Below are positions 3,001 through 16,039 of a stretch of DNA of 64,000 bases, in pieces. Location: NCBI RefSeq assembly GCF_009931435.1, contig NZ_CP043414.1; one strand, written 5' to 3'. Numbering within the stretch: the stretch's first letter is position 1; each line of letters begins with the position of its first letter. The translations under genes and the position numbers were made by a program. The stretch comes from Escherichia coli (GTDB lineage Bacteria > Pseudomonadota > Gammaproteobacteria > Enterobacterales > Enterobacteriaceae). The notes beneath the pieces are model-generated. The model saw only the letters and a program-made list of their open reading frames with translations, was not told where the DNA came from and did not search any database.

Positions 3001-3761
3001 AAGGTGAAGCCGCGCCCGTCGTTGTTACCGTAAAAGACAGCGCCGGGAAGCCGGTACCGAATGTCGCTTTCACCTTAAAACGTGGTGATGCCGTGCCGCG
3101 TAACAGCGGGGCGACGTTGTATGGTGATGTTGCGGCGATGGATGATATGACGGTACAACCTGCCAGCGGGACGGTGGTAACGCTGGCTGACAGTGGGAAT
3201 ACGATCGACGGTGTGACAGGGGCGGACGGTACGGCAAGTTTTGCCGTTCGTCAGGATAATACGCCAGGATATAAAACGCCGTTGACGGTGACGCTGACGG
3301 ATAACGCCACAATAACGGCGACGCTGGATACGATTTTCACCGTGCCGACCAGCCCGAATGTCGCCACGGCGTATTTCTGGGGGCATATGGCGGATACCGC
3401 CACCGTAAGTGGCAAGACGTTACATCGCCCGCTATTGCAATCAGAGTTGCCGTCAGGGGCTACAGCGGCAGTAGCGCCAACGGTGAATAATGAAATCTGG
3501 GCGCTGGCACATGTGATCGATGCTCAAAAATGGGATATTGCAAAGCAGTGCGGTGACTTTAGTAGAGCACCGAGCTATACCGATTTACAGTCGTTACATA
3601 GCAGCTTTAGCGCGCTGGGATGGCCATCATCGATAAGCTTCCCCTATTTCTCTACCGATCGGGCCGGTTCGTTCTATTGTGGCATGGATGAAGGGGCGGG
3701 GACACAAAACTGCGGTATTCAGGCATCCAGTACTGCGGGGTTTGCAACCTGTTTCCAGTAG
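3..3761 (+). CDS. Large repetitive surface/adhesin-like protein, RatA/RatB-like; 5'-truncated by window edge (C-terminal 1252 aa present)
   Basis: Open frame runs from the window start. Four tandem modules of about 285 aa each begin near nt 781, 1641, 2501 and 3331 with a conserved motif (FTVVTSPD...WGHM.DT.T...GV.F.RP.L.KEL). Position next to xseA matches the Salmonella CS54 islet; the family assignment is from memory. Confidence 0.6.
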   Translation: MASDGTIYKRPLLLKELSNTSGRNSTAENGEDWARFTWTQSADTSMNGCGTDYMPTLDGLKSLYDANSGNVMSTVQGWPVKTTYLTNTPSDTQTGSRYYNVVQLNTGAVSQISTNTVVQQTCRTTPLTAASQITLEASDPSQFVSIDSTLSAIKVQKGDSVSIRISTKDAQGNLVGNTPFALKHANPVNRQNVASTSQKVSVTTASGTTVDTTASTILYGVTGPDGTTTMTLRQDVSTGLKTDFYALLNDTGVSSNTLPVIFTVVTSPDTPLAANWGHMAETFTSSKGVTFKRPFLKAELSGGTAVTTNNEVWSRLTATEKTDASKAGCDESYQPLMTDMQGLYADYPNNQLGTVLGLPTSAGYMWAYDMMTVSGSSWSNQAYSLVNGQTVQASSSYTAVVMCLVEPHTVPAMIEITSTAQDAAKTVSNGGRPSAVAKKGETIPLTVTVRDSTGNPVPYADFTLTRGTTLDRSKATVNSSADDLTVKSLIPANSDAGLTANGAKVLRTTGSDGTATFEVSQNATTGLATPITVTLARDTTKTATLDVIYTVITSPDSPSAKFWGYMPDTFTSSAGVTFRRPLLKAEATSGSSISTNGNGEVWSYMSNVQNLTSTDCPLENQPRSNELLDLYNDHPNGAIMTDLGLPIYAGKWWAYDMVMPDLYTWQYQTVSLSAGDIAKSSANNALMLCLAKPHPAGVSVMLTSSAMDNARTLSNGGRPSASVKKGNPLPIVVTVKDRDGNPLAGEAVTLRRGSAMSRSGAGVGTPANAMTLTELTPVSAEFSLAAHDTQWQGFTGSDGTATFNVEQPETIGLAIPFTAILARDVATTSVLDTIFTVVTSPDSAMATYWGHMPDTVTAENGVVFERPKLLKELPSSAGVSQVTDNNEVWPLFKATQREDSSLSPCEAARRPLSDDLLSLYARYPGNTLTTQIGWSTKYAWWALDNKQGNALVVSLNNGFESSTASTGYQGCLVNPRATVSSVTLTSTVIDATTQAAKVKKGEAAPVVVTVKDSAGKPVPNVAFTLKRGDAVPRNSGATLYGDVAAMDDMTVQPASGTVVTLADSGNTIDGVTGADGTASFAVRQDNTPGYKTPLTVTLTDNATITATLDTIFTVPTSPNVATAYFWGHMADTATVSGKTLHRPLLQSELPSGATAAVAPTVNNEIWALAHVIDAQKWDIAKQCGDFSRAPSYTDLQSLHSSFSALGWPSSISFPYFSTDRAGSFYCGMDEGAGTQNCGIQASSTAGFATCFQ

Positions 3762-3816
3762 TCTTAACGGGTCTGTAAATGGGGGCCAAGATGTAAATAA
3801 GATTCGCAATACGTCA

Positions 3817-5214
<1,398 letters not shown>

Positions 5215-5273
5215 TTATTCAGTCGATAGTAACCCGCCCTCCGGGGATAGCAAGCATTTTTTGCAAAAAGGGG

Positions 5274-5302
5274 TAGATGCAATCGGTTACGCTCTGTATA
5301 AT
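5274..5302 (+). promoter_or_regulatory. guaBA promoter region; -10 TATAAT at 5297-5302, possible PurR-like operator at 5277-5292
   Basis: TATAAT hexamer 44 nt upstream of the guaB ATG; ATGCAATCGGTTACGC resembles the PurR consensus with mismatches. Confidence 0.45.
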
Positions 5303-5345
5303 GCCGCGGCAATATTTATTAACCACTCTGGTCGAGATATTGCCC

Positions 5346-6812
5346 ATGCTACGTATCGCTAAAGAAGCTCTGACGTTTGACGACGTTCTCCTCGTTCCTG
5401 CACATTCTACCGTTCTGCCGAATACCGCTGACCTCAGCACCCAGCTGACGAAAACTATTCGTCTGAATATCCCTATGCTCTCCGCAGCAATGGATACCGT
5501 AACGGAAGCGCGCCTGGCTATCGCCCTGGCTCAGGAAGGCGGTATCGGCTTTATCCACAAAAACATGTCCATTGAACGCCAGGCTGAAGAAGTTCGCCGC
5601 GTGAAAAAACACGAATCTGGCGTGGTAACCGATCCGCAGACTGTTCTGCCGACAACCACCCTGCGTGAAGTGAAAGAACTGACCGAGCGTAACGGCTTTG
5701 CAGGCTATCCGGTAGTTACCGAAGAAAACGAACTGGTCGGCATCATCACCGGTCGTGACGTGCGTTTTGTTACCGACCTGAACCAGCCGGTCAGCGTTTA
5801 CATGACGCCGAAAGAGCGTCTGGTAACCGTGCGTGAAGGCGAAGCCCGTGAAGTTGTGCTGGCAAAAATGCACGAAAAACGCGTTGAAAAAGCGCTGGTG
5901 GTTGATGATGAATTCCACCTGATCGGCATGATCACTGTGAAGGACTTCCAGAAAGCGGAGCGTAAACCGAACGCCTGTAAAGACGAGCAAGGCCGTCTGC
6001 GTGTTGGTGCAGCGGTTGGTGCAGGTGCGGGTAACGAAGAGCGTGTTGATGCGCTGGTTGCCGCAGGCGTTGACGTTCTGCTGATCGACTCCTCTCACGG
6101 TCACTCTGAAGGCGTTCTGCAGCGTATCCGTGAAACTCGCGCTAAATATCCTGATCTGCAAATCATCGGCGGCAACGTGGCAACAGCTGCAGGTGCCCGC
6201 GCGCTGGCAGAAGCCGGTTGCAGTGCCGTTAAAGTGGGTATCGGCCCTGGTTCTATTTGTACTACCCGCATTGTTACTGGCGTCGGTGTTCCGCAGATCA
6301 CCGCCGTTGCTGACGCAGTAGAAGCCCTGGAAGGCACCGGGATTCCGGTTATCGCAGACGGTGGTATTCGTTTCTCTGGCGATATCGCGAAAGCTATCGC
6401 TGCTGGTGCAAGCGCGGTGATGGTAGGCTCCATGCTGGCGGGTACTGAAGAATCCCCGGGTGAAATCGAACTCTACCAGGGCCGTTCTTACAAGTCTTAC
6501 CGTGGGATGGGCTCTCTGGGCGCGATGTCCAAAGGTTCTTCTGACCGTTACTTCCAGAGCGACAACGCTGCCGACAAACTGGTGCCGGAAGGTATCGAAG
6601 GCCGTGTAGCCTACAAAGGTCGTCTGAAAGAGATCATTCACCAGCAGATGGGCGGCCTGCGCTCCTGTATGGGCCTGACCGGCTGTGGTACTATCGACGA
6701 ACTGCGTACTAAAGCGGAGTTTGTACGTATCAGCGGTGCGGGCATTCAGGAAAGCCACGTTCACGACGTGACCATTACTAAAGAGTCCCCGAACTACCGT
6801 CTGGGCTCCTGA
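5346..6812 (+). CDS. guaB: IMP dehydrogenase
   Basis: 488 aa from the ATG at 5346 ([13 protein letters not shown]...); the ORF track's upstream extension is rejected in favour of the conserved start. Confidence 0.97.
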
Positions 6813-6880
6813 TTCTCTTCGCCCGACTTCATGTCGGGCGATTTATATTATCTGTTTCACTTGCCTCGGAATAAGCGTCA

Positions 6881-8458
6881 ATGACGGAAAACATTCATAA
6901 GCATCGCATCCTCATTCTGGACTTCGGTTCTCAGTACACCCAACTGGTTGCGCGCCGCGTGCGTGAACTGGGTGTTTACTGCGAACTGTGGGCGTGGGAT
7001 GTGACAGAAGCACAAATTCGTGACTTCAATCCAAGCGGCATTATTCTTTCCGGCGGCCCGGAAAGCACCACCGAAGAAAACAGCCCGCGTGCGCCGCAGT
7101 ATGTCTTTGAAGCAGGCGTACCGGTATTCGGCGTTTGCTATGGTATGCAGACCATGGCAATGCAGTTGGGTGGTCATGTTGAAGCCTCTAACGAACGTGA
7201 ATTTGGCTATGCGCAGGTTGAAGTCGTAAACGACAGCGCACTGGTTCGCGGTATCGAAGATGCTCTGACAGCAGACGGTAAACCTCTGCTCGATGTCTGG
7301 ATGAGCCACGGCGATAAAGTTACCGCTATCCCGTCCGACTTCATCACCGTAGCCAGCACCGAAAGCTGCCCGTTCGCCATCATGGCAAATGAAGAAAAAC
7401 GCTTCTATGGCGTACAGTTCCACCCGGAAGTGACTCATACCCGCCAGGGGATGCGCATGCTGGAGCGTTTTGTGCGTGATATCTGCCAGTGTGAAGCCCT
7501 GTGGACGCCAGCGAAAATTATCGACGATGCAGTAGCCCGTATCCGCGAGCAGGTAGGCGACGATAAAGTGATCCTCGGCCTCTCTGGTGGCGTGGATTCC
7601 TCCGTGACTGCAATGCTGCTGCACCGCGCAATCGGCAAAAACCTGACTTGCGTATTCGTTGACAACGGCCTGCTGCGTCTCAACGAAGCAGAGCAGGTTC
7701 TGGATATGTTTGGCGATCACTTTGGTCTGAACATTGTTCACGTTCCGGCAGAAGATCGCTTCTTGTCAGCGCTGGCTGGTGAAAACGATCCGGAAGCAAA
7801 ACGTAAAATCATCGGTCGCGTTTTCGTTGAAGTATTCGATGAAGAAGCGCTGAAACTGGAAGATGTGAAGTGGCTGGCGCAGGGTACTATCTACCCTGAT
7901 GTTATCGAATCTGCCGCGTCTGCAACCGGTAAAGCTCACGTCATCAAATCTCACCACAACGTGGGCGGCCTGCCGAAAGAGATGAAGATGGGCCTGGTTG
8001 AACCGCTGAAAGAGCTGTTCAAAGACGAAGTGCGTAAAATTGGTCTGGAGCTGGGCCTGCCGTACGACATGCTGTACCGTCACCCGTTCCCGGGACCAGG
8101 GCTTGGCGTTCGTGTGCTGGGCGAAGTGAAGAAAGAGTACTGCGACCTGCTGCGCCGTGCTGATGCCATCTTCATTGAAGAACTGCGTAAAGCGGACCTG
8201 TACGACAAAGTTAGCCAGGCGTTTACCGTGTTCCTGCCGGTACGTTCTGTTGGCGTAATGGGCGATGGTCGTAAATACGACTGGGTTGTGTCTCTGCGTG
8301 CCGTCGAAACCATCGACTTTATGACCGCACACTGGGCACATCTGCCGTACGATTTCCTTGGTCGCGTTTCCAACCGCATTATCAATGAAGTGAACGGTAT
8401 TTCCCGCGTGGTGTATGACATCAGCGGCAAGCCGCCAGCGACTATTGAGTGGGAGTAG
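6881..8458 (+). CDS. guaA: GMP synthase (glutamine-hydrolysing)
   Basis: 525 aa [25 protein letters not shown]...; 68 bp downstream of guaB. Confidence 0.97.
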
Positions 8459-8500
8459 GACTGGCTATAAATAGTAAATTAAGCCTTTCCAACTAACTTT

Positions 8501-8532
8501 AATGCCAGTCAGTTTGCTGACTGGCATTTTTT
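8501..8532 (+). terminator. Intrinsic terminator of guaBA
   Basis: 12 bp perfect stem (AATGCCAGTCAG / CTGACTGGCATT), 4 nt loop, then a T6 run; 43 nt after the guaA stop. Confidence 0.75.
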
Positions 8533-8752
8533 ATTGGTTTTTCATTGAGTTTATGACTTCTATTTTTAAGGCCGTAACTCTATAACATCGGCTATGGCCT
8601 AAAGATAAAAGCCATTACCAACAAAATGGCGGTATTCCAAAACAGTCTAGCCGGAAGTGCTTACAATGAGATCGATCAAATCGACAAATGAGATACTGGC
8701 CGTTGTGAGCGCCCGGCAACCGTAGCCGTAGGGGGCGAATTTAATGGCTTTG

Positions 8753-9529
8753 TTATGAGCCATTGGTAATCGCACCCATGACAATTTGAAAGAGTTCTTC
8801 TGCTCGATTAGTGGAGCCAATTGCACCTCTTTCTCTCGCCATTCTCTTGTGCTCTGGTAGATCTGAGGACGCATAGATCATAAAAGGAGTTTTGTCTCCC
8901 ATTGCGCGTAATCTTTCTAGTAAGACATAACCTTCTTGCGCCCCTTCTTTGCGATCCATATCCGAAATAATAGCTGCAAACTTATTTGTTTTTAACAATT
9001 CCAAGGCTTCGTCAGTTGAAAGAGCTAAAGCGAACTCTATTCCCTGTGCCTCAAATGCCTGTCTTTCGTAAACATTATTTTCTGGTCGATCATCCACCCA
9101 TAAAATACGATTTCGCCATTTTTCATGCTTACTCTGCCGTTTTGCATTGGATACAACGTTGACGATTTTTTGCAGTTGGCTTTCAGTGACCCCTGCACTA
9201 TTTTCAGGCTGTTTTGCTGTGGCGGCGGTCAATGATGCTGCTGTAGCTATTTGCGCTCTTAAAAAATTATTTTCATCTTTGAAATCTGACGGCCCGTAAA
9301 GCTTATTATGATGTTTCGCAACAAGCCAGAGAAAGCCAAGAAACACAATGACAGGAAAGAAAACCATGAAATAAATAAGGGGAGCTATATGCTCTGATAA
9401 GCCATTACCAAAGCCAACGACGAAAGAGGCAAATCCATAAACGAGAACAATAAAGAGTGCAATGATACCAAGAGGGCTTTTGGTAAATCCTATTGCAGTT
9501 TCAGCAAATTTCTCTGGTTCCATATCCAT
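8753..9529 (-). CDS. Membrane-anchored receiver-like (CheY-fold) protein: two predicted TM helices plus C-terminal pseudo-receiver domain
   Basis: 258 aa ORF. Hydrophobic stretches at about residues 19-41 and 48-72. Residues about 141-252 align by eye to CheY (ILWVDD for the beta1 acidic pair, IISDMD for the phospho-acceptor Asp, IYASS for the Thr/Ser position), but no lysine at the K109-equivalent position. Low GC, about 40 percent. Confidence 0.55.
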   Translation of the reverse strand: MDMEPEKFAETAIGFTKSPLGIIALFIVLVYGFASFVVGFGNGLSEHIAPLIYFMVFFPVIVFLGFLWLVAKHHNKLYGPSDFKDENNFLRAQIATAASLTAATAKQPENSAGVTESQLQKIVNVVSNAKRQSKHEKWRNRILWVDDRPENNVYERQAFEAQGIEFALALSTDEALELLKTNKFAAIISDMDRKEGAQEGYVLLERLRAMGDKTPFMIYASSDLPEHKRMARERGAIGSTNRAEELFQIVMGAITNGS

Positions 9530-9616
9530 CCTCAGTATTGCTCATAACACAGTTAAGTTGTATTAGATCAGACCTGATCTGACAATTACCGGCTATTTAT
9601 AAAGGTATCTGTCAGA

Positions 9617-10012
9617 TTACATCTGGCTTAAGTTTTTCTCATCCCAGATGTGCTTTCCATCAAGTAACGTTTCCATCGGCGTTCGGCCACTGCACATTTT
9701 TCCCTGATGGGTTCGCTCATTATTATAGTGAACCCGCCATTCATCAAGAACCGATTGTAATGCTTCAAGATCATCATATAACTTTTTGCGGAACGTCACC
9801 TGATAAAACTCGTTCAGTATCGTTTTATGGAACTGCTCGCAGATACTATTGGTCTTAGATGACATTGCTTTCGTTTTCGTATGCTCAATATCATTTATCG
9901 CCAGATAAAGCTGGTAATCATGCTGCTCCACTTTACCGCAATCTCTTGGTGTATTGAGAGGCGGGTTATAAAATAAATACTGATACCATGAGGGCGGATC
10001 AATCGTGGTCAT
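9617..10012 (-). pseudogene. 3' remnant of a DDE (rve-type) transposase gene
   Basis: 131 aa ORF whose C-terminal part (SSKTNSICEQFHKTILNEF...HYNNERTHQG...GRTP) matches the integrase-core C-terminus typical of IS481/IS3-type transposases. The N-terminal two thirds of a transposase are absent and the ATPase gene abuts the truncation point. Confidence 0.55.
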
Positions 10013-10027
10013 AGTATCAGGTCATTC

Positions 10028-11542
10028 TCATGGGTTTATTGCGTCCCTGAAGATGACGTCGCTGACCATCTCTCCTCCAAGAAAATCGATCAACATATTC
10101 GAGTTTTCAAGGTCTTCTCTGGTCAATGCCCCGATTGCTTGTCCAACTACTACCTCCCAAGGTTTTTTACACTCAACAATAGCACAGACGAGTTGGCGGA
10201 TTTTCTTGATCTTCTTGTGACGCAATCGGTCGTTCGATTCCATTAGTTCTGCAATCAACGCTATGTCGGAGTGTGTTTGATTATCCTCAACCCATTTTTT
10301 GGCTGCGTCTACAAATTCCACCCATGTAACATTCATTACTGCAAGGCATGAATCAGTCAAAAGAACATTTTCGATAGCGTAGCATCGTAAGCGATAGCGT
10401 TTAAGAGGTAGGCGATGTTCAAGCGACTTGTTGATTACACCATCGCCATCACGAAGGGAAAAGGCGATTGGATTGTCATAGAGTGTACTAAGGAGGTCTA
10501 CGCAAAAATCCTCAAGTTGACTCTGTTGATCTACGCTACCTGCTAGTACGGGAAAGATTTTTATTCGACCCTGTGATGTTCTGGCCGCTTGTTGCCAGAC
10601 TCGTTCGTCGTCCTCTCCTTCCAAAATTAATGCAGCGTCTTCGCTAAGAGAAAGCGATAGGGGGTGCCCGAAGAATGGTGCAATCTTTCGAAGTTCATCG
10701 CTGGCCGGTATCAATGAGATTTCATTTACTGCAAAGCTCTTCGTGCCGATTGATACATATGGGGAGGCGGCAAGAGAACAGACGAGCGGGGAACTATGGG
10801 TGGATAAGCATATGGCAATACTGTTCGCGTGTGTTCTAAATTCGTCGAGCATACTGATTATCAGCTTGCCCAGTCTAGCTTGGAGGTCGGGGTGCAGATG
10901 TACATCAGGCTCATCGAGGAGGAGTACGTTGAATTTCTCCGGATCTATTGTGTCGAAGAAATAGATGATTTCCGCGGCTAATGCAACCGCTTCCGATTCA
11001 CCGCTACTGATTTGGGCCGGATCAATAATCTGACCATCTACAAGTGATCGAAACTCATAATCGACATTACCCATCTCGAGCGAAATGTTAGTGAGAAGCT
11101 GATTAATTTTACTTAATCGGTCTGTCTGAAAGTTTCGCGTTAGATCAGTTCGAATTTCCGGAGTATTGGCAAGTCGACGTAAGTAAAGCGTCTCGGCCTC
11201 GCGAAATAGCATAGCCGATGCAGCTTTGAAGTTGCTTGCCTGATTAACTGCCCGAGTGTGCCTCAGCCATTCGGGGTTGTCGCTCATATTTGTGAGGACG
11301 GTGCCATCACGCTTGAACGATCCTGCTCGCTCTGGACTTACATACCGGACATAAAATTGCTGCTTGTTCTGGCTGATTGTTTGTTCGATATCGCGAAGGA
11401 AACGACTTTTTCCCGCACCGTTTCGGCCCATAATTATGTTGATGTTGTTTAAGCCGTAAAGTCGGCCAATTTGGCTAGATAACTCGCTTACTTTCAAGAT
11501 TGTAACTCCATTTCTTGTTGCCACATACGGTAACAAATACAC
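10028..11542 (-). CDS. ABC-type ATPase fused to TOPRIM-like nuclease motif (OLD-family / Gabija GajA-like), candidate anti-phage protein
   Basis: 504 aa ORF. Walker A GRNGAGKS (residues 39-46, nt 11405-11428), signature-like SSGESE (179-184), Walker B VLLLDEPD (206-213), H-loop-like STHS (247-250), TOPRIM-like Glu in LILEGEDDE (E308) and DxD in LRDGDG (D365/D367). Start codon uncertain: GTG at 11542, or a TTG at residue 16 preceded by GGAG. About 43-45 percent GC. Confidence 0.6.
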   Translation of the reverse strand: MYLLPYVATRNGVTILKVSELSSQIGRLYGLNNINIIMGRNGAGKSRFLRDIEQTISQNKQQFYVRYVSPERAGSFKRDGTVLTNMSDNPEWLRHTRAVNQASNFKAASAMLFREAETLYLRRLANTPEIRTDLTRNFQTDRLSKINQLLTNISLEMGNVDYEFRSLVDGQIIDPAQISSGESEAVALAAEIIYFFDTIDPEKFNVLLLDEPDVHLHPDLQARLGKLIISMLDEFRTHANSIAICLSTHSSPLVCSLAASPYVSIGTKSFAVNEISLIPASDELRKIAPFFGHPLSLSLSEDAALILEGEDDERVWQQAARTSQGRIKIFPVLAGSVDQQSQLEDFCVDLLSTLYDNPIAFSLRDGDGVINKSLEHRLPLKRYRLRCYAIENVLLTDSCLAVMNVTWVEFVDAAKKWVEDNQTHSDIALIAELMESNDRLRHKKIKKIRQLVCAIVECKKPWEVVVGQAIGALTREDLENSNMLIDFLGGEMVSDVIFRDAINP

Positions 11543-11800
11543 TAACTGAATAGGTGCGTTGATGCCTCATTTTGTTCACATCTATGTTGAAATTAGTGAT
11601 GTGAACGAGCTAAGGACTCTATTAGGAGTAGAGCGGCCATATTGTTCGTCTGAACAGCCTGTAGACAGCTCTATTATTGAGACATGGTATTTTTCGTGGT
11701 ATCTGCTAAGTAGTTTGTTTCAAGGCATTGATTTATTTATATTTTATTTTCTCATTGATAGCTGAGTGGGAATGATTTGATCCCTGCACTATGAATTAGC

Positions 11801-11830
11801 AAAACCCTCTGTTACTACAGAGGGTTTTTT
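11801..11830. terminator. Bidirectional hairpin terminator downstream of yfgI, at the islet boundary
   Basis: AAAA-CCCTCTG-TTACTA-CAGAGGG-TTTTTT; the A-tract/T-tract flanks allow termination in both directions. Confidence 0.55.
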
Positions 11831-11868
11831 ATACTCACGAATCATAGGATTGAAGTTACTGACATCGC

Positions 11869-12408
11869 TTAGTTAAACCAGCTGTCCGATTTGTTCTCTT
11901 CTGCTTTGCCCACGCTTTTCATCAGATCGCGACCGCCTTCAGTCATATTCCTGTTTGCGTCAGCTTCAGATTGCACCACATCGGTTTGCGCAGCTTTGTG
12001 CTTCAGTTCCTGATCGATAAATTCGTTTTCTCGCTTAACGCGGGCTTCTTCTTTCGCCAGCGCCAGTTTTTGTTTCTGAATCTCTAAGCTGCGTAGCTCA
12101 TCTTCATAACTTTGATCGCGTTTCTTGTCCGCAGTGGCTTCGGCGTCCAGTTTATCCTGACGAGCTTTCTTATTTGCCGCTGCCGTTGCCGCTCTTTTGT
12201 TAGCGGCGGCCTGGGCGTTTGCGCGACGTTGCTTCTCTTGCTGGATTTCCCTGTTGCGCTCCGCGACCCATTCGTCATGCTGCCTTTGCTCTTCATTTTT
12301 ACCTTGCTGTTCCGCTTCTGCGACAGCAGAGAGTTGATCCTGCAATGATGAGGCGATAGCCGGATAGCTTAAGGAGGCTAAGATGGCGCAAAGAAAAACT
12401 TTCTTCAT
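11869..12408 (-). CDS. yfgI: Periplasmic protein YfgI
   Basis: 179 aa, signal peptide MKKVFLCAILASLSYPAIA, charged K/E/Q-rich body; synteny with yfgH. Confidence 0.85.
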   Translation of the reverse strand: MKKVFLCAILASLSYPAIASSLQDQLSAVAEAEQQGKNEEQRQHDEWVAERNREIQQEKQRRANAQAAANKRAATAAANKKARQDKLDAEATADKKRDQSYEDELRSLEIQKQKLALAKEEARVKRENEFIDQELKHKAAQTDVVQSEADANRNMTEGGRDLMKSVGKAEENKSDSWFN

Positions 12409-12423
12409 GACTCCTCCTGATTA

Positions 12424-12942
12424 TTAGCTCTTTTCAGGACATTTGGTATTTGGCTGAATACGCGTTTCGTTATACGTCGTGGTAATAACAACGGCTAAAC
12501 CTGTCGTAAACTGGCACTCTTTACCCACCTGGGTGGAGGTATACACTTTGGTGCCTTCCTTATACGTTAGAGAAACACCTTCCACTAAGGTTTTATCATT
12601 CACCATAGAACCTGCTGCCGCGCCAACAGCTCCGCCGCCAACTGCACCTGCCGTCGTTCCGGAATTGCTGCCAGACCCCACGTTGTGGCCGATAACACCG
12701 CCAGCGACTGCACCAATAAGCGCGCCGAAGGCTTGTGCGTTTCGTTTATTTTGGGAGTTGTCTACGGCAACTTTTGCGGGAAGAATGGAAATAATATTAA
12801 CGGTTTTAGTTTCTTGTTTGGTATTCAGTTGATCGGTTTGATAAACATCGGCGGCATGATCATCAGCATTTGACTGGCATCCTGCCAGAGTGAATGACGC
12901 TAACATTGCCACAGGCAGAAGACATTTTTTAAATTTCATCAC
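12424..12942 (-). CDS. yfgH: Outer-membrane lipoprotein YfgH (glycine-zipper)
   Basis: 172 aa, lipobox LAGC, Gly-rich zipper GALIGAVAGGVIGHNVGSG. Confidence 0.85.
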   Translation of the reverse strand: MMKFKKCLLPVAMLASFTLAGCQSNADDHAADVYQTDQLNTKQETKTVNIISILPAKVAVDNSQNKRNAQAFGALIGAVAGGVIGHNVGSGSNSGTTAGAVGGGAVGAAAGSMVNDKTLVEGVSLTYKEGTKVYTSTQVGKECQFTTGLAVVITTTYNETRIQPNTKCPEKS

Positions 12943-13252
12943 TATTCCTTGTTATACACATTACGAAAAATAAGACATTTAAGATCATCAAAAGAGGAAA
13001 GTAAATGTATTGCGTATAAAGGAATAGATTAAATTTATTAAAATTCATGTGGAAAATAATTTATAAAAATACATCATTAAAACATATGTATTAATTTTAT
13101 ATTTATTTCGCAGCCAAACAGGATAAACATCAGTCAGGACAAAGACGTAAAATTTAAGATGAAAGAATATCTGCCGCTTTGATAATCTCAAAGAGCAACT
13201 GCATCCGACAGCGAGGTGCCGTTATGTTCAGTGAAGGTGGAGAAGGTAACCG

Positions 13253-13444
13253 CTAACGTTGTACCGGTGATTCGACGGAGAGTGTGGATTGTTGAGCTTC
13301 TTTTTTGCTCTGATGGTGCTGCCAGGCACCGACGGACGAGTAGATAAAGCGGCCAAAGAAGAAGATAAAGCTGATGAGCAGTACGATACGGGTCATGCGA
13401 CTGTTAAATCGGTGTCGTTTTCGCATACTGGTTGCCTGACTCAC
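13253..13444 (-). CDS. yfgG: Small membrane protein YfgG
   Basis: 63 aa ORF with one hydrophobic helix; conserved position divergent from pdeF. Confidence 0.7.
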   Translation of the reverse strand: MSQATSMRKRHRFNSRMTRIVLLISFIFFFGRFIYSSVGAWQHHQSKKEAQQSTLSVESPVQR

Positions 13445-13654
13445 AAAAGGTTCCTTGAAGTATGTCCCACGCCGTGGACGGTACTTACATTAAGGCACAA
13501 CAGGACAAAATGGTCAATTCTTCGTTATGTAAAAAAGCGTCAGTGGATACATATTTTAATGTTATGGAAGTTAATTTAATTATTTACAATGATGATGTAA
13601 TAATGATGAATTAACATGATAAACGTAATAATTCATTAATCAGGGTTATTTTGT

Positions 13655-13668
13655 TTGATATATATCAA
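13655..13668 (+). promoter_or_regulatory. FNR/CRP-type box TTGAT-ATAT-ATCAA upstream of pdeF, with candidate -10 TAGAAT at 13690-13695
   Basis: Perfect TTGAT-N4-ATCAA palindrome centred about 40 bp upstream of the predicted start site, a class II arrangement. Confidence 0.5.
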
Positions 13669-13795
13669 TTGGAACTTTCATATGACACTTAGAATCAATG
13701 CTCTCTATAGTGATGAATAATCATCATTCGAAGTCAGGTGGGATGCCTGTCTGAATACACCTCCTTCACGATGTGGGGGATTCTGCTGAGCATCT

Positions 13796-16039
13796 ATGAA
13801 ACTGAATGCAACCTATATAAAAATACGTGATAAATGGTGGGGGCTTCCGCTGTTCCTGCCTTCTTTCATCTTGCCCATTTTCGCCCATATTAATACTTTC
13901 GCGCATATTTCTTCCGGTGAGGTTTTTCTCTTTTACCTGCCTTTGGCACTGATGATCAGCATGATGATGTTTTTCAGCTGGGCGGCATTGCCAGGGATCG
14001 CCTTAGGGATTTTTGTCCGCAAATATGCAGAGCTGGGTATTTACGAAACGCTCTCATTAACAGCTAATTTTATTATCATTATCATTCTCTGTTGGGGCGG
14101 TTACAGGGTCTTTACTCCCCGGCGTAACAACGTTTCACATGGTGATACCCGTTTAATTGCCCAGCGTATATTCTGGCAGATTGTATTTCCTGCAACGCTG
14201 TTTCTAATACTTTTCCAATTTGCTGCGTTTGTTGGATTACTGGCGAGCAGAGAAAATCTGGTCGGCGTCATGCCTTTTAACCTCGGGACCTTAATCAATT
14301 ATCAGGCCTTACTGGTGGGCAATCTGATTGGTGTTCCGCTGTGCTACTTCATCATTCGGGTGGTGCGAAATCCGTTTTATTTACGCAGCTATTATTCGCA
14401 ATTAAAACAGCAAGTTGATGTCAAAGTCACCAAAAAAGAGTTCGCGCTCTGGCTACTGGCATTAGGTGCGTTGTTGTTGCTGTTATGCATGCCGTTAAAT
14501 GAAAAAAGCACGATTTTCAGCACCAATTATACCTTGTCATTATTGCTACCCCTGATGATGTGGGGAGCCATGCGCTATGGTTATAAGTTGATTTCGCTGC
14601 TCTGGGCGGTCGTGCTGATGATCAGCATCCACAGCTATCAAAATTACATTCCCATTTATCCTGGCTATACCACGCAACTGACCATAACCTCCTCCAGTTA
14701 TCTGGTATTCTCTTTTATTGTCAATTATATGGTTGTACTGGCAACCCGTCAGCGAGCGGTAGTCAGACGCATTCAGCGGCTTGCGTATGTGGACCCGGTG
14801 GTTCATCTGCCAAATGTTCGCGCCCTGAATCGCGCGTTGCGTGATGCCCCCTGGTCTGCGCTTTGTTATTTACGCATCCCCGGCATGGAAATGCTGGTTA
14901 AGAACTATGGCATCATGCTACGGATTCAATACAAGCAAAAACTTTCTCACTGGCTGTCACCATTGCTGGAACCGGGTGAAGATGTTTATCAGCTTTCGGG
15001 TAACGATCTCGCGCTGCGACTGAATACAGAATCGCACCAGGAGCGCATTACCGCACTGGATAGCCATCTCAAGCAATTTCGTTTCTTTTGGGATGGAATG
15101 CCGATGCAACCGCAGATTGGCGTCAGTTACTGCTATGTGCGCTCGCCAGTGAATCATATCTACTTACTGCTGGGAGAGCTAAATACGGTCGCCGAACTTT
15201 CCATCGTGACCAACGCCCCGGAAAATATGCAGCGTCGCGGGGCAATGTATTTGCAACGCGAATTGAAAGATAAAGTCGCGATGATGAATCGGCTACAGCA
15301 GGCGCTGGAACACAACCATTTTTTCCTGATGGCCCAGCCGATTACCGGTATGCGTGGTGATGTCTACCATGAGATCCTTCTGCGCATGAAAGGTGATAAT
15401 GATGAACTGATCAGCCCCGACAGCTTCTTGCCGGTCGCGCACGAATTTGGTTTATCGTCGAGTATCGACATGTGGGTCATTGAGCATACGCTGCAATTTA
15501 TGGCTGAAAACAGAGCGAAGATGCCCGCTCACCGTTTTGCGATTAATCTGTCGCCAACCTCGGTATGTCAGGCTCGTTTTCCCGTTGAAGTCAGTCAGCT
15601 GCTGGCTAAATACCAGATTGAAGCGTGGCAACTTATTTTTGAAGTCACCGAAAGTAATGCGCTGACCAATGTTAAGCAGGCGCAAATCACCTTGCAGCAT
15701 CTTCAGGAATTAGGCTGCCAGATTGCGATTGATGATTTCGGCACCGGCTACGCCAGCTATGCGCGGCTTAAAAATGTGAATGCCGATCTCCTTAAAATTG
15801 ACGGCAGTTTTATCCGCAATATTGTGTCAAATAGTCTGGATTACCAGATAGTGGCGTCGATTTGTCACCTGGCGCGAATGAAGAAAATGCTGGTAGTGGC
15901 AGAGTACGTTGAAAACGAAGAGATCCGCGAGGCGGTGCTTTCTTTAGGGATAGATTATATGCAGGGTTATCTTATTGGTAAGCCGCAACCGTTAATTGAT
16001 ACGCTGAATGAAATCGAACCCATTCGCGAAAGTGCCTGA
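13796..16039 (+). CDS. pdeF: Cyclic-di-GMP phosphodiesterase PdeF (MASE1 - degenerate GGDEF - EAL)
   Basis: 747 aa; multi-TM N-terminus; EAL-domain motifs in the C-terminal part. Confidence 0.92.
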   Translation: MKLNATYIKIRDKWWGLPLFLPSFILPIFAHINTFAHISSGEVFLFYLPLALMISMMMFFSWAALPGIALGIFVRKYAELGIYETLSLTANFIIIIILCWGGYRVFTPRRNNVSHGDTRLIAQRIFWQIVFPATLFLILFQFAAFVGLLASRENLVGVMPFNLGTLINYQALLVGNLIGVPLCYFIIRVVRNPFYLRSYYSQLKQQVDVKVTKKEFALWLLALGALLLLLCMPLNEKSTIFSTNYTLSLLLPLMMWGAMRYGYKLISLLWAVVLMISIHSYQNYIPIYPGYTTQLTITSSSYLVFSFIVNYMVVLATRQRAVVRRIQRLAYVDPVVHLPNVRALNRALRDAPWSALCYLRIPGMEMLVKNYGIMLRIQYKQKLSHWLSPLLEPGEDVYQLSGNDLALRLNTESHQERITALDSHLKQFRFFWDGMPMQPQIGVSYCYVRSPVNHIYLLLGELNTVAELSIVTNAPENMQRRGAMYLQRELKDKVAMMNRLQQALEHNHFFLMAQPITGMRGDVYHEILLRMKGDNDELISPDSFLPVAHEFGLSSSIDMWVIEHTLQFMAENRAKMPAHRFAINLSPTSVCQARFPVEVSQLLAKYQIEAWQLIFEVTESNALTNVKQAQITLQHLQELGCQIAIDDFGTGYASYARLKNVNADLLKIDGSFIRNIVSNSLDYQIVASICHLARMKKMLVVAEYVENEEIREAVLSLGIDYMQGYLIGKPQPLIDTLNEIEPIRESA

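Follow-up and report, generated by a model that had tools for sequence, protein, structure and literature searches.

What is the AT-rich stretch that separates a predicted ATPase gene from yfgI on this Escherichia coli chromosome, and how much of it belongs to the ATPase gene? The stretch (positions 11543-11830) lies in a window of 64,000 nucleotides, by which we mean the whole piece of DNA that was analysed. A first-pass annotation had taken it for the leader of the ATPase gene, holding a promoter, a small divergent open reading frame (ORF) and a palindromic terminator. The composition was described correctly: the GC content of 11543-11800 is 37.2% compared with 51.7% for the whole window, and it is just 28% in the 93 nt closest to the recombination core described below (11670-11762). 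Our analysis corrects the local annotation on three points: where the gene starts, where the terminator comes from and where the foreign DNA ends. The flagged interval very probably represents attR, the right-hand junction at which a 3.3-kb islet without an integrase, inserted at the 3′ end of guaA, meets the chromosome.

The window carries an Escherichia-type chromosome with the gene order guaB – guaA (6881-8458, plus strand) – insert – yfgI (11869-12408, minus strand) – yfgH – yfgG – pdeF. K-12 (strain C600) has an empty site without an islet, where the guaA stop codon is directly followed by a hairpin and the convergent yfgI gene. The last 13 nt of K-12 guaA (T GAG TGG GAA TGA) are identical to window positions 11763-11775 (TGAGTGGGAATGA), with the displaced guaA stop codon TGA at 11773-11775. 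Because these positions copy the end of guaA, the flagged region straddles the junction between islet and chromosome. The guaA gene of the window terminates with ...ATT GAG TGG GAG TAG at 8458 and is followed by foreign DNA, whereas K-12 shows GAA TGA and then the hairpin; the 3′ end of guaA carries the insertion, and the gene end has been restored by islet DNA (GAG TAG). From the K-12-like guaA end at 11763-11775 and the foreign DNA after 8458, it follows that the insert comprises 8455-11763. The DNA from 11764 rightward is ordinary E. coli chromosome. Exact matches to the motif GAGTGGGA form direct repeats at 8447-8454 and 11764-11771, so that the junction can be described by the following features:

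8447-8454, plus strand: attL core GAGTGGGA, within the last guaA codons (motif match, comparison with K-12 guaA)
8455-11763, no strand: inserted islet of 3.3 kb (site empty in K-12; ORF content)
11764-11771, plus strand: attR core GAGTGGGA (exact motif match)
11772-11800, plus strand: displaced original guaA end and 3′ untranslated region, chromosomal (alignment with K-12, SL124 and prophage-bearing strains)

Besides the ATPase gene, the islet contains a gene for a "response regulator"-like protein with transmembrane (TM) and REC domains (8753-9529, minus strand) and an rve_3 IS remnant (9617-9940, minus strand). Among these ORFs (REC protein, rve_3 IS fragment and ATPase), no integrase gene (tyrosine integrase, plus AlpA) was found beside attL. 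For lack of an integrase, the islet is not an autonomous GIsul2-type island and at most a passenger unit.

The repeated core is known from other elements. The island GIsul2 uses GAGTGGGA at the 3′ end of guaA for its core recombination. Excision and integration by its integrase were demonstrated for the island as well as for an internal, integrase-less part of it, the CR2-sul2 unit, which is bounded by two core sites, attLR and attR (PMC9376610). The attP/attB core of the phages eps15, phiV10 and vB_EcoP_ZX5 is attgagtgggaatgatt, and the integrase of these phages has an arm-binding N-terminal domain (PMC9782041). Window positions 11762-11778 are identical to this phage core at 15 of 17 bases, and GAGTGGGA is contained in it. 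When 30 E. coli matches to the right flank were sampled across their spread, six had no guaA gene underneath. Five of these six were examined. Three are prophages, the ends of which carry holin, GH19 endolysin and DUF2514 genes; the other two are the ATPase islet and a DUF262 islet of two genes (SL124).

The same comparison settles the origin of the two terminators at the locus:

11801-11830, both strands: ancestral bidirectional intrinsic terminator of guaA (plus) and yfgI (minus) (genome distribution, K-12, folding)
8501-8534, plus strand: islet-borne replacement terminator for guaA, a hairpin with T-run (-19.3 kcal/mol, z -5.5)

The hairpin at 11801-11828 consists of a 12-bp stem and a 4-nt loop, with T's up to 11830. 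It folds with -17.8 kcal/mol on the plus and -20.7 kcal/mol on the minus strand (z about -7 relative to shuffled sequences on both strands) and is followed by six U's on the plus strand and four on the minus strand (UUUUG), where it lies 39 nt beyond the yfgI stop codon, as an intrinsic terminator of this gene would. A simple terminator scanner did not list it. The right flank with this hairpin (11763 onward) is present in 5368 of 5426 complete E. coli genomes, usually overlapping the guaA end, whereas the islet leader to the left of 11763 occurs in only 27 of the 5426, with 97.7-98.1% identity and always at the guaA site; D8, UPEC132 and FDAARGOS_1258-1262 are examples of strains that carry the islet. 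Based on this difference in distribution, the hairpin is the ancestral guaA/yfgI terminator and not islet DNA; the palindrome noted in the first-pass annotation is a real hairpin serving yfgI, but no part of the foreign leader. In the arrangement that we propose, it would now terminate yfgI and shield the islet from yfgI read-through, while guaA would be supplied with a new terminator (8501-8534) by the islet. Most of the elements compared at the guaA site have a hairpin of their own directly after the core. An Rfam scan of 8300-13900 gave a single match, to Qrr, which lies on the islet's guaA terminator and reaches 24 bits against a threshold of 50.

To the left of the junction, the extent of the leader depends on where the ATPase gene begins:

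10028-11497, minus strand: ABC-type ATPase gene, 489 aa, TTG start, with a Toprim-like C-terminal half (Pfam, PADLOC, PDB, motifs)

Position 11542, previously given as the gene start, is a GTG that does no more than open the longest ORF. NCBI annotates 489 aa in three E. coli copies, most of the 120 homologues listed are 484-497 aa long, similarity among distant homologues from other classes starts exactly at TTGAAAG with unrelated DNA upstream, and a GGAG is found 8 nt 5′ of the TTG at 11497. For these reasons we place the start at TTG 11497, and the non-coding stretch is therefore 11498-11763 (266 nt). The ATPase family is widespread and strongly conserved. Another ORF on the minus strand that overlaps the ATPase start (11475-11579) was dismissed, since single-base indels break its frame in E. 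mori and P. aeruginosa. Within the protein, the N-terminal half matches Pfam AAA_15/AAA_21, and the motifs EGEDDE and RDGDG are invariant in the homologues. Weak matches were obtained with PADLOC (PDC-M01A, a candidate family, as the best, then AriA and AriAB; E 1e-14 to 1e-18) and in the PDB (AriA and the retron Ec83 ATPase; E 1e-4).

The opposite strand of the leader contains the small frame that gave rise to the idea of a divergent gene:

11559-11765, plus strand: 68-codon ORF with a TTG start, judged spurious (its stop codon TGA overlaps the att core)

Such a frame does exist at these positions, and it is intact in the close E. coli-type copies (the window, L001, L003, L061, L062 and L065). 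It could in principle encode a small hydrophobic protein, for example an islet regulator or a membrane peptide, but we regard this as extremely improbable. Its TTG start lacks a Shine-Dalgarno sequence, there is no match in Pfam or PADLOC, and all three substitutions among the E. coli copies are non-synonymous. Beyond the close copies the frame has decayed: S. marcescens, K. aerogenes, E. mori, P. aeruginosa, L070 and L068, the six diverged lineages, all show stop codons or frameshifts that interrupt it. Moreover, when the same 303 nt are simulated with a first-order Markov model, 12% of the simulated sequences contain an open frame of at least 68 codons, and the stop codon comes from the att core, so that the frame depends on the junction. 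The earlier suspicion that this is probably not a gene is borne out by the decay of the frame and by the substitutions, and we reject the 68-codon frame as a gene and see it as an accident of sequence.

The leader itself is found well beyond E. coli. The 266 nt recur in K. aerogenes, S. marcescens, E. mori, E. bugandensis, the enterobacterial contig L070, P. aeruginosa and three metagenome contigs; there are 12 distinct versions or loci from at least five genera, including Klebsiella, Serratia, Enterobacter and Pseudomonas. A pattern scan of metagenomes returned 7 loci, of which L063 and L066 are chance matches in coding-like sequence of an unrelated gene. All 12 versions of the leader have a conserved sequence that starts at GCTATCAAT, directly after the displaced guaA stop codon and the host's guaA terminator. 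BLAST of the leader against a phage collection gave no match, and the only match in a plasmid collection was one mislabelled chromosome. Upstream of the ATPase homologues in alpha-proteobacteria, Vreelandella, L071 and L072, the leader is absent and the DNA unrelated, and a leader profile (nhmmer) matched nothing upstream of 49 homologous ATPase loci in a collection of species-representative genomes. Because of the latter result, the leader is not intrinsic to the ATPase gene. Since it always lies at a displaced guaA end and is absent upstream of other homologues, it is, judged by this distribution, a property of one lineage of guaA-targeted elements rather than of the gene family.

These loci differ in what accompanies the ATPase gene. 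E. coli and K. aerogenes share the same composite of ATPase gene, IS fragment and REC-domain gene, inserted at the same core with different flanks. In P. aeruginosa (L010), a conjugative element carries the ATPase unit at its distal end, between two cores (4709 and 6640), and L068 and L070 contain an extra 302-aa gene. The segment between the two cores of L072 (3658 and 9639) contains, besides the arm and the ATPase gene, a NACHT gene in divergent orientation. L071 has a diverged ATPase homologue alone beside guaA; its upstream region is a different one, and the distal core is degenerate. L009, L061 and three IMG/VR proviruses show the islet and a prophage end in tandem, and two of the three provirus contigs start exactly at the att end of the islet.

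The leader consists of three parts, whose conservation was measured in an alignment of the six diverged lineages:

11498-11577, minus strand: most conserved non-coding block, presumed promoter/operator and 5′ untranslated region (UTR) (identity profile, alignment)
11578-11683, minus strand: leader middle, near-neutral and indel-tolerant (palindrome TGTTC-AGAC-GAACA at 11643-11656, imperfect hairpin)
11684-11763, no strand: element-borne attR arm of about 80 bp (GGTAT repeats, IHF-consensus site, A/T tract, CATTGAT)

Mean pairwise identity is 0.8-0.92 in the last 85 alignment columns, corresponding to window positions 11498-11577, and 0.73-0.81 in the first 36 columns, the core-proximal arm; it drops to 0.5-0.7 in the middle, which also shows indels of 12-16 nt. 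Over the whole leader, identity is roughly equal to that at fourfold-degenerate sites of the ATPase gene in mid-range comparisons (0.73-0.87 vs 0.69-0.87). Only the comparison with P. aeruginosa gives a clear excess in the leader (0.70 vs 0.41 at fourfold sites), and this one is confounded by a shift in base composition. Because whole-leader identity tracks the fourfold sites at mid range, the constraint on the leader, as far as the alignment reveals it, is real but local. Two further motifs were considered and discarded. The sequence CTGTTCAGACGAACAA was rejected by eye as a LexA box, since it lacks an A/T-rich spacer and its conservation does not extend to P. aeruginosa, and the hairpin GTTCACATC...GATGTGAAC with a 9-bp stem is perfect only in the window and not conserved in E. 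mori, P. aeruginosa and L070.

The conserved block adjoins the start codon and contains the Shine-Dalgarno sequence GGAG (11506-11509) and a -10-like hexamer TACCGT (11527-11532), which reads TATCNT in relatives (TAYCNT overall) and is preceded by TG in E. coli-type copies. The window has the variant GTTACC where GATATC is common. Generic promoter scans gave low scores and predicted no convincing σ70 promoter on the ATPase strand, and no -35 partner for the proposed -10 element is evident, so that the -10-like TAYCNT is the only conserved promoter element. For a promoter in this block, weak and followed by about 23 nt of UTR, we see the chances as evenly balanced. It would fit a gene with a TTG start that is conserved throughout its family, and the weak -10 element, the GGAG and the conserved TTG together suggest that the ATPase may be expressed constitutively at a low level. 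The first-pass annotation had placed the promoter within 11543-11800. A control region does lie upstream of the gene, but the best-conserved, promoter-like block is largely outside this interval because the true start is 45 nt further to the left. The AT-rich interval as a whole is likewise more than a leader: it includes control DNA of the ATPase gene, but also the attR junction and a predicted integrase arm.

Alternatively, the whole 266 nt could be a long structured 5′ UTR that regulates the ATPase as a sensor or as a translational switch sequestering the Shine-Dalgarno sequence. Some covariation is indeed seen in three small helices, one of which overlaps the Shine-Dalgarno sequence; five pairs show compensatory changes compared with 2.3 expected, a number reached in 1 of 500 shuffles, and G-U pairs favour the ATPase-sense strand. 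This signal stems from an alignment of only 11 related sequences, whose consensus fold is weak (RNAalifold, -14.9 kcal/mol with a covariation term of -0.38), and the z-scores of single sequences are only about -2 on both strands. Neither is there an Rfam match, and the DNA upstream of homologues with 72-83% identity (L012-L018, L071 and L072) is unrelated. A complete NACHT gene of 4 kb separates the arm from the ATPase-proximal part in L072 and splits the region. A regulatory UTR of this length thus appears quite unlikely to us, and we retain the short promoter/UTR block next to the gene.

At the other end of the leader, the 80 nt next to the core are laid out as expected of a λ-type att site, and we infer from this layout that 11684-11763 is a putative integrase arm. 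Two tandem GGTAT repeats (11686-11690 and 11698-11702) are located about 62-78 bp from the core, where 0.17 would be expected in 80 nt from the window-wide frequency. To compare arms, we aligned 120 nt of element-side sequence, anchored at the core, from 11 arms. They include arms of the ATPase cassette from three hosts, of prophages, of the DUF262 islet, of the NACHT unit and of the neighbouring units in L010 and L072. The pair NGGTAT-N7-NGGTAT, with a period of 11-12 bp, is found about 62-78 bp from the core in 10 of these 11 arms, and arms with unrelated cargo, an ICE end among them, carry it at the same offset. The exception is the ATPase arm of K. aerogenes, where a 13-nt deletion shifts the pair and the second repeat is lost. 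Between the repeats and the core, an A/T tract contains AATCAATGCCTTG (11721-11733, minus strand), which matches the IHF consensus WATCAANNNNTTR. Most leader copies match the consensus exactly and three deviate at one base, and the position is largely conserved; the prophage arms show no such match. Closest to the core, a second CATTGAT is found at 11753-11759. The leader profile matches the arms of SL124 and L072 only over its first 95 positions.

The same A/T-rich DNA raises the possibility of an outward promoter driving a chimeric junction RNA of about 80 nt on the plus strand that would end at 11801-11830. This RNA is conceivable because the best promoter-like scores of the leader are on the plus strand and point to the hairpin, which with its six U's makes a good plus-strand terminator. 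The candidate promoter, TTGTTT-17-TATATT with the -10 element at 11740-11745, has counterparts at a similar position in the copies of E. coli D8, L061, S. marcescens and K. aerogenes; in P. aeruginosa, L062, L065, L070 and L068 the match is absent or weak. However, A/T-rich DNA readily gives such matches, and a stricter scan found none. The RNA would also have no Rfam match and no apparent target, being antisense only to non-coding DNA. We therefore consider it very unlikely, and the bases concerned are better explained as IHF and arm sites.

The far side of the ATPase gene may hold the counterpart of this arm:

9981-10020, minus strand: inverted pair CTGATAC(T/C)ATGA ... TCATGGTATCAG directly 3′ of the ATPase stop codon (kept in five loci)

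The pair folds weakly (-5.8 kcal/mol). An inverted ATACCATG/CATGGTAT pair is located about 135-175 nt from the core in the other arm of the P. aeruginosa cassette and of the SL124 DUF262 islet. By this resemblance, 9981-10020 may be a pair of arm-type sites that belongs to the other arm of the cassette, or else a weak terminator. In the islet of the window, the left end of the cassette has been replaced by the IS fragment.

Taken together, these features suggest how the islet could move. The 8-bp core GAGTGGGA at 11764-11771, between the chromosomal guaA end and the arm of the element, would be the site of crossover. A cognate tyrosine integrase and IHF, supplied in trans, would assemble on the arm (11684-11763), with the helically phased GGTAT repeats as integrase arm-type sites, and excise or re-integrate the islet. 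A loosely constrained spacer of about 100 bp would then separate the arm from the ATPase promoter/5′-UTR block (11498-11577). Excision would produce the circle junction ...TCTCATTGATAGCT-GAGTGGGA-GTAGGACTGGCTATAAATAG... (in a longer form, TATTTTATTTTCTCATTGATAGCT-GAGTGGGA-GTAGGACTGGCTATAAATAG) and restore the empty site GCGACTATT-GAGTGGGA-ATGATTTGATCCCTGC. Since both cores and the phage-like phased arm repeats have been retained, the integrase of a resident phage or island could move the islet.

The islet has no integrase and its mobility is a proposal, so the arm may be a relic. On that account, the region would be an inert scar, that is, the deletion remnant of a larger island or prophage with a dead att arm, comprising little besides a promoter and a host terminator. 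The missing integrase, the IS fragment in place of the left end of the cassette and the near-neutral conservation at mid range would all agree with this, as would the decay of one arm repeat in K. aerogenes and the substitutions private to the window copy, which number 5 in the leader vs 3 in the coding sequence. A scar would not, however, be expected to have two intact cores, nor arm repeats and an IHF site that hold their position across genera and types of cargo. The same RR-ATPase islet also occupies exactly the same core in E. coli and K. aerogenes with different flanks, and movement is documented for the CR2-sul2 unit, which has no own integrase (PMC9376610). Weighing both sides, we find an inert scar unlikely, if still worth serious consideration.

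A more far-reaching interpretation is that leader, ATPase gene and about 170-190 nt 3′ of the gene, bounded by GAGTGGGA, form an integrase-less cassette of about 1.9 kb with both att arms, which spreads between genera by borrowing the integrase of a guaA-specific phage (eps15/phiV10 type) or of a GIsul2-type island; this is possible, though short of probable. If it holds, the cassette can leave together with a neighbouring prophage when the outermost att sites recombine, and guaA would host an integron-like, accreting array of defence cassettes with one gene each (ATPase, NACHT, DUF262, HipA and others). Many bacterial defence islets lack mobility genes, and their means of movement is an open question (PMC10121019); the main text of that paper on E. 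coli defence hotspots does not mention guaA or yfgI. The cassette would explain how "minimal defence islands" without mobility genes move, and it offers a testable route for moving such islets at one hotspot. The feature as flagged is largely ordinary: a weak promoter region and a spurious ORF beside an att junction and the terminator of the host. What is worth keeping is a recurrent, integrase-less, defence-type cassette that shares arm repeats with guaA phages.

Several known systems resemble parts of this locus. With its G+C-rich 12-bp stem flanked by an A-run and a T-run between guaA and yfgI, the hairpin at 11801-11830 is similar to bidirectional terminators between convergent genes; in contrast to these, it no longer serves guaA after the insertion, and its U-tract has only four residues on the yfgI strand. 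The ATPase shares an ABC-type N-terminal half and EGxxD and DxD motifs in its C-terminal half with AriA/AriAB of PARIS and with OLD-family ATPase-Toprim proteins. This resemblance is distant and the matches are weak, the protein has 489 aa, and its role in defence is predicted only.

The attR arm follows the plan of a λ-type attP, with a short core, phased direct repeats tens of base pairs away and a match to WATCAANNNNTTR in A/T-rich DNA; protein binding to the islet arm, unlike in the λ system, is deduced from sequence only. The Uetakevirus phages (eps15, phiV10 and vB_EcoP_ZX5) have the att core in common with the islet, and E. coli prophages share its attR flank. In prophages of this type, a GGTAT-N7-GGTAC/T pair is as far from the core as the pair in the islet arm, and the islet is found in tandem with them. 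Nevertheless, the islet comprises 3.3 kb without phage genes, and the arms cannot be aligned beyond short motifs.

The closest analogue of the islet is the CR2-sul2 unit of GIsul2. In one sul2-bearing plasmid copy that we examined, the core was not found, and ISAba1 lies directly upstream of sul2. The cargo of the two units differs, the islet carrying an ATPase/Toprim-like gene of defence type instead of sul2 or rcr2, and mobility was demonstrated experimentally for the CR2-sul2 unit, whereas we know the islet from its sequence. On the other hand, both have the same target, carry the same GAGTGGGA at both ends, lack an integrase and lie distal to guaA. Their cargo reads inward from attR behind about 300 bp of non-coding DNA, and the element side of the islet's attL (GGGAGTAGGACTGGC) resembles the published CR2 end GGGAGTGACGGGCACTGGC. 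The islet is best regarded as a new passenger unit that occupies an attachment site already known.

The ATPase gene of the guaA islet (489 aa, minus strand) was placed by the first-pass annotation with its start at 11542, but the 504-aa GTG open reading frame on which this was based is 15 codons too long. A TTG start (region 11495-11542, minus strand) is kept from Enterobacterales through Rhizobiales and is used here instead, leaving a non-coding leader at 11498-11763. The copy in the window carries five private substitutions in this 265-nt leader, against three across 1470 nt of coding sequence (Fisher p = 0.003). Of the five, three lie inside the most conserved block (11498-11577, minus strand), the presumed promoter/operator and 5′ UTR, and two of these three convert GATATC, invariant in the other copies and located at the presumed –10, to GTTACC. 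These substitutions could reflect regulatory change or decay. The leader also contains a palindrome and two copies of the motif GAACAA(T/A)ATG (minus strand), separated by about 70 nt, the second of which is nearly invariant; the palindrome or the repeats could serve as an operator.

Features of the leader
11514, 11530, 11533, 11605, 11712: private substitutions of the window copy
11571-11577, minus strand: repeat motif
11643-11656, minus strand: palindrome TGTTC-AGAC-GAACA, mid-leader

Among elements inserted at the guaA att core, the right end, formed by the ATPase leader, is constant and the left ends are variable, the pattern that tandem accretion at one att site would be expected to give. 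The guaA terminator hairpin located directly behind the core differs among most elements compared (window 8455-8534; comparison loci L005, L007, L068, L070 and L071). A sub-threshold Rfam match to Qrr (8465-8534, plus strand) scores 24 bits, where the gathering score is 50 (E = 0.38); it falls on the guaA terminator carried by the islet and is almost certainly due to chance. The original left end of the cassette has been replaced by an rve_3 transposase fragment, and the same composite, including the gene for a 258-aa protein with a receiver (REC) domain, is carried by K. aerogenes. A PADLOC search with this protein returned no match.

Features of the islet's left part
8753-9529, minus strand: gene for the 258-aa protein, membrane region N-terminal and REC domain C-terminal
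9617-9940, minus strand: rve_3 transposase fragment

Beyond the islet, both flanks of yfgG are extremely A/T-rich (23-25% GC at 12900-13100 and 13500-13700), and RefSeq E. coli genomes carry an annotated 50-aa hypothetical protein (WP_000017552.1) at the position matching the following frame.

Open reading frame between yfgG and pdeF
13462-13614, plus strand: 50 aa

In three IMG/VR proviruses (L078, L079 and L080) islet and prophage are arranged in tandem, and the att arm of the prophage is the same as in E. coli guaA prophages. Since two of these provirus contigs, of ~41 kb, begin exactly at the islet's att end, islet and phage might excise jointly through the outermost att sites.

Other units at the guaA att site encode a 1314-aa NACHT-like NTPase and a 1341-aa HTH-STAND NTPase, and further cargo comprises SIR2, a Schlafen-type helicase, HipA and DUF262 pairs.

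Loci with such other units
L072 (NACHT gene beside the ATPase gene), 3658-9639 and beyond
L010 (P. aeruginosa; next to the ATPase cassette), 6640-11473

The guaA site looks like a defence-gene hotspot in several genera.
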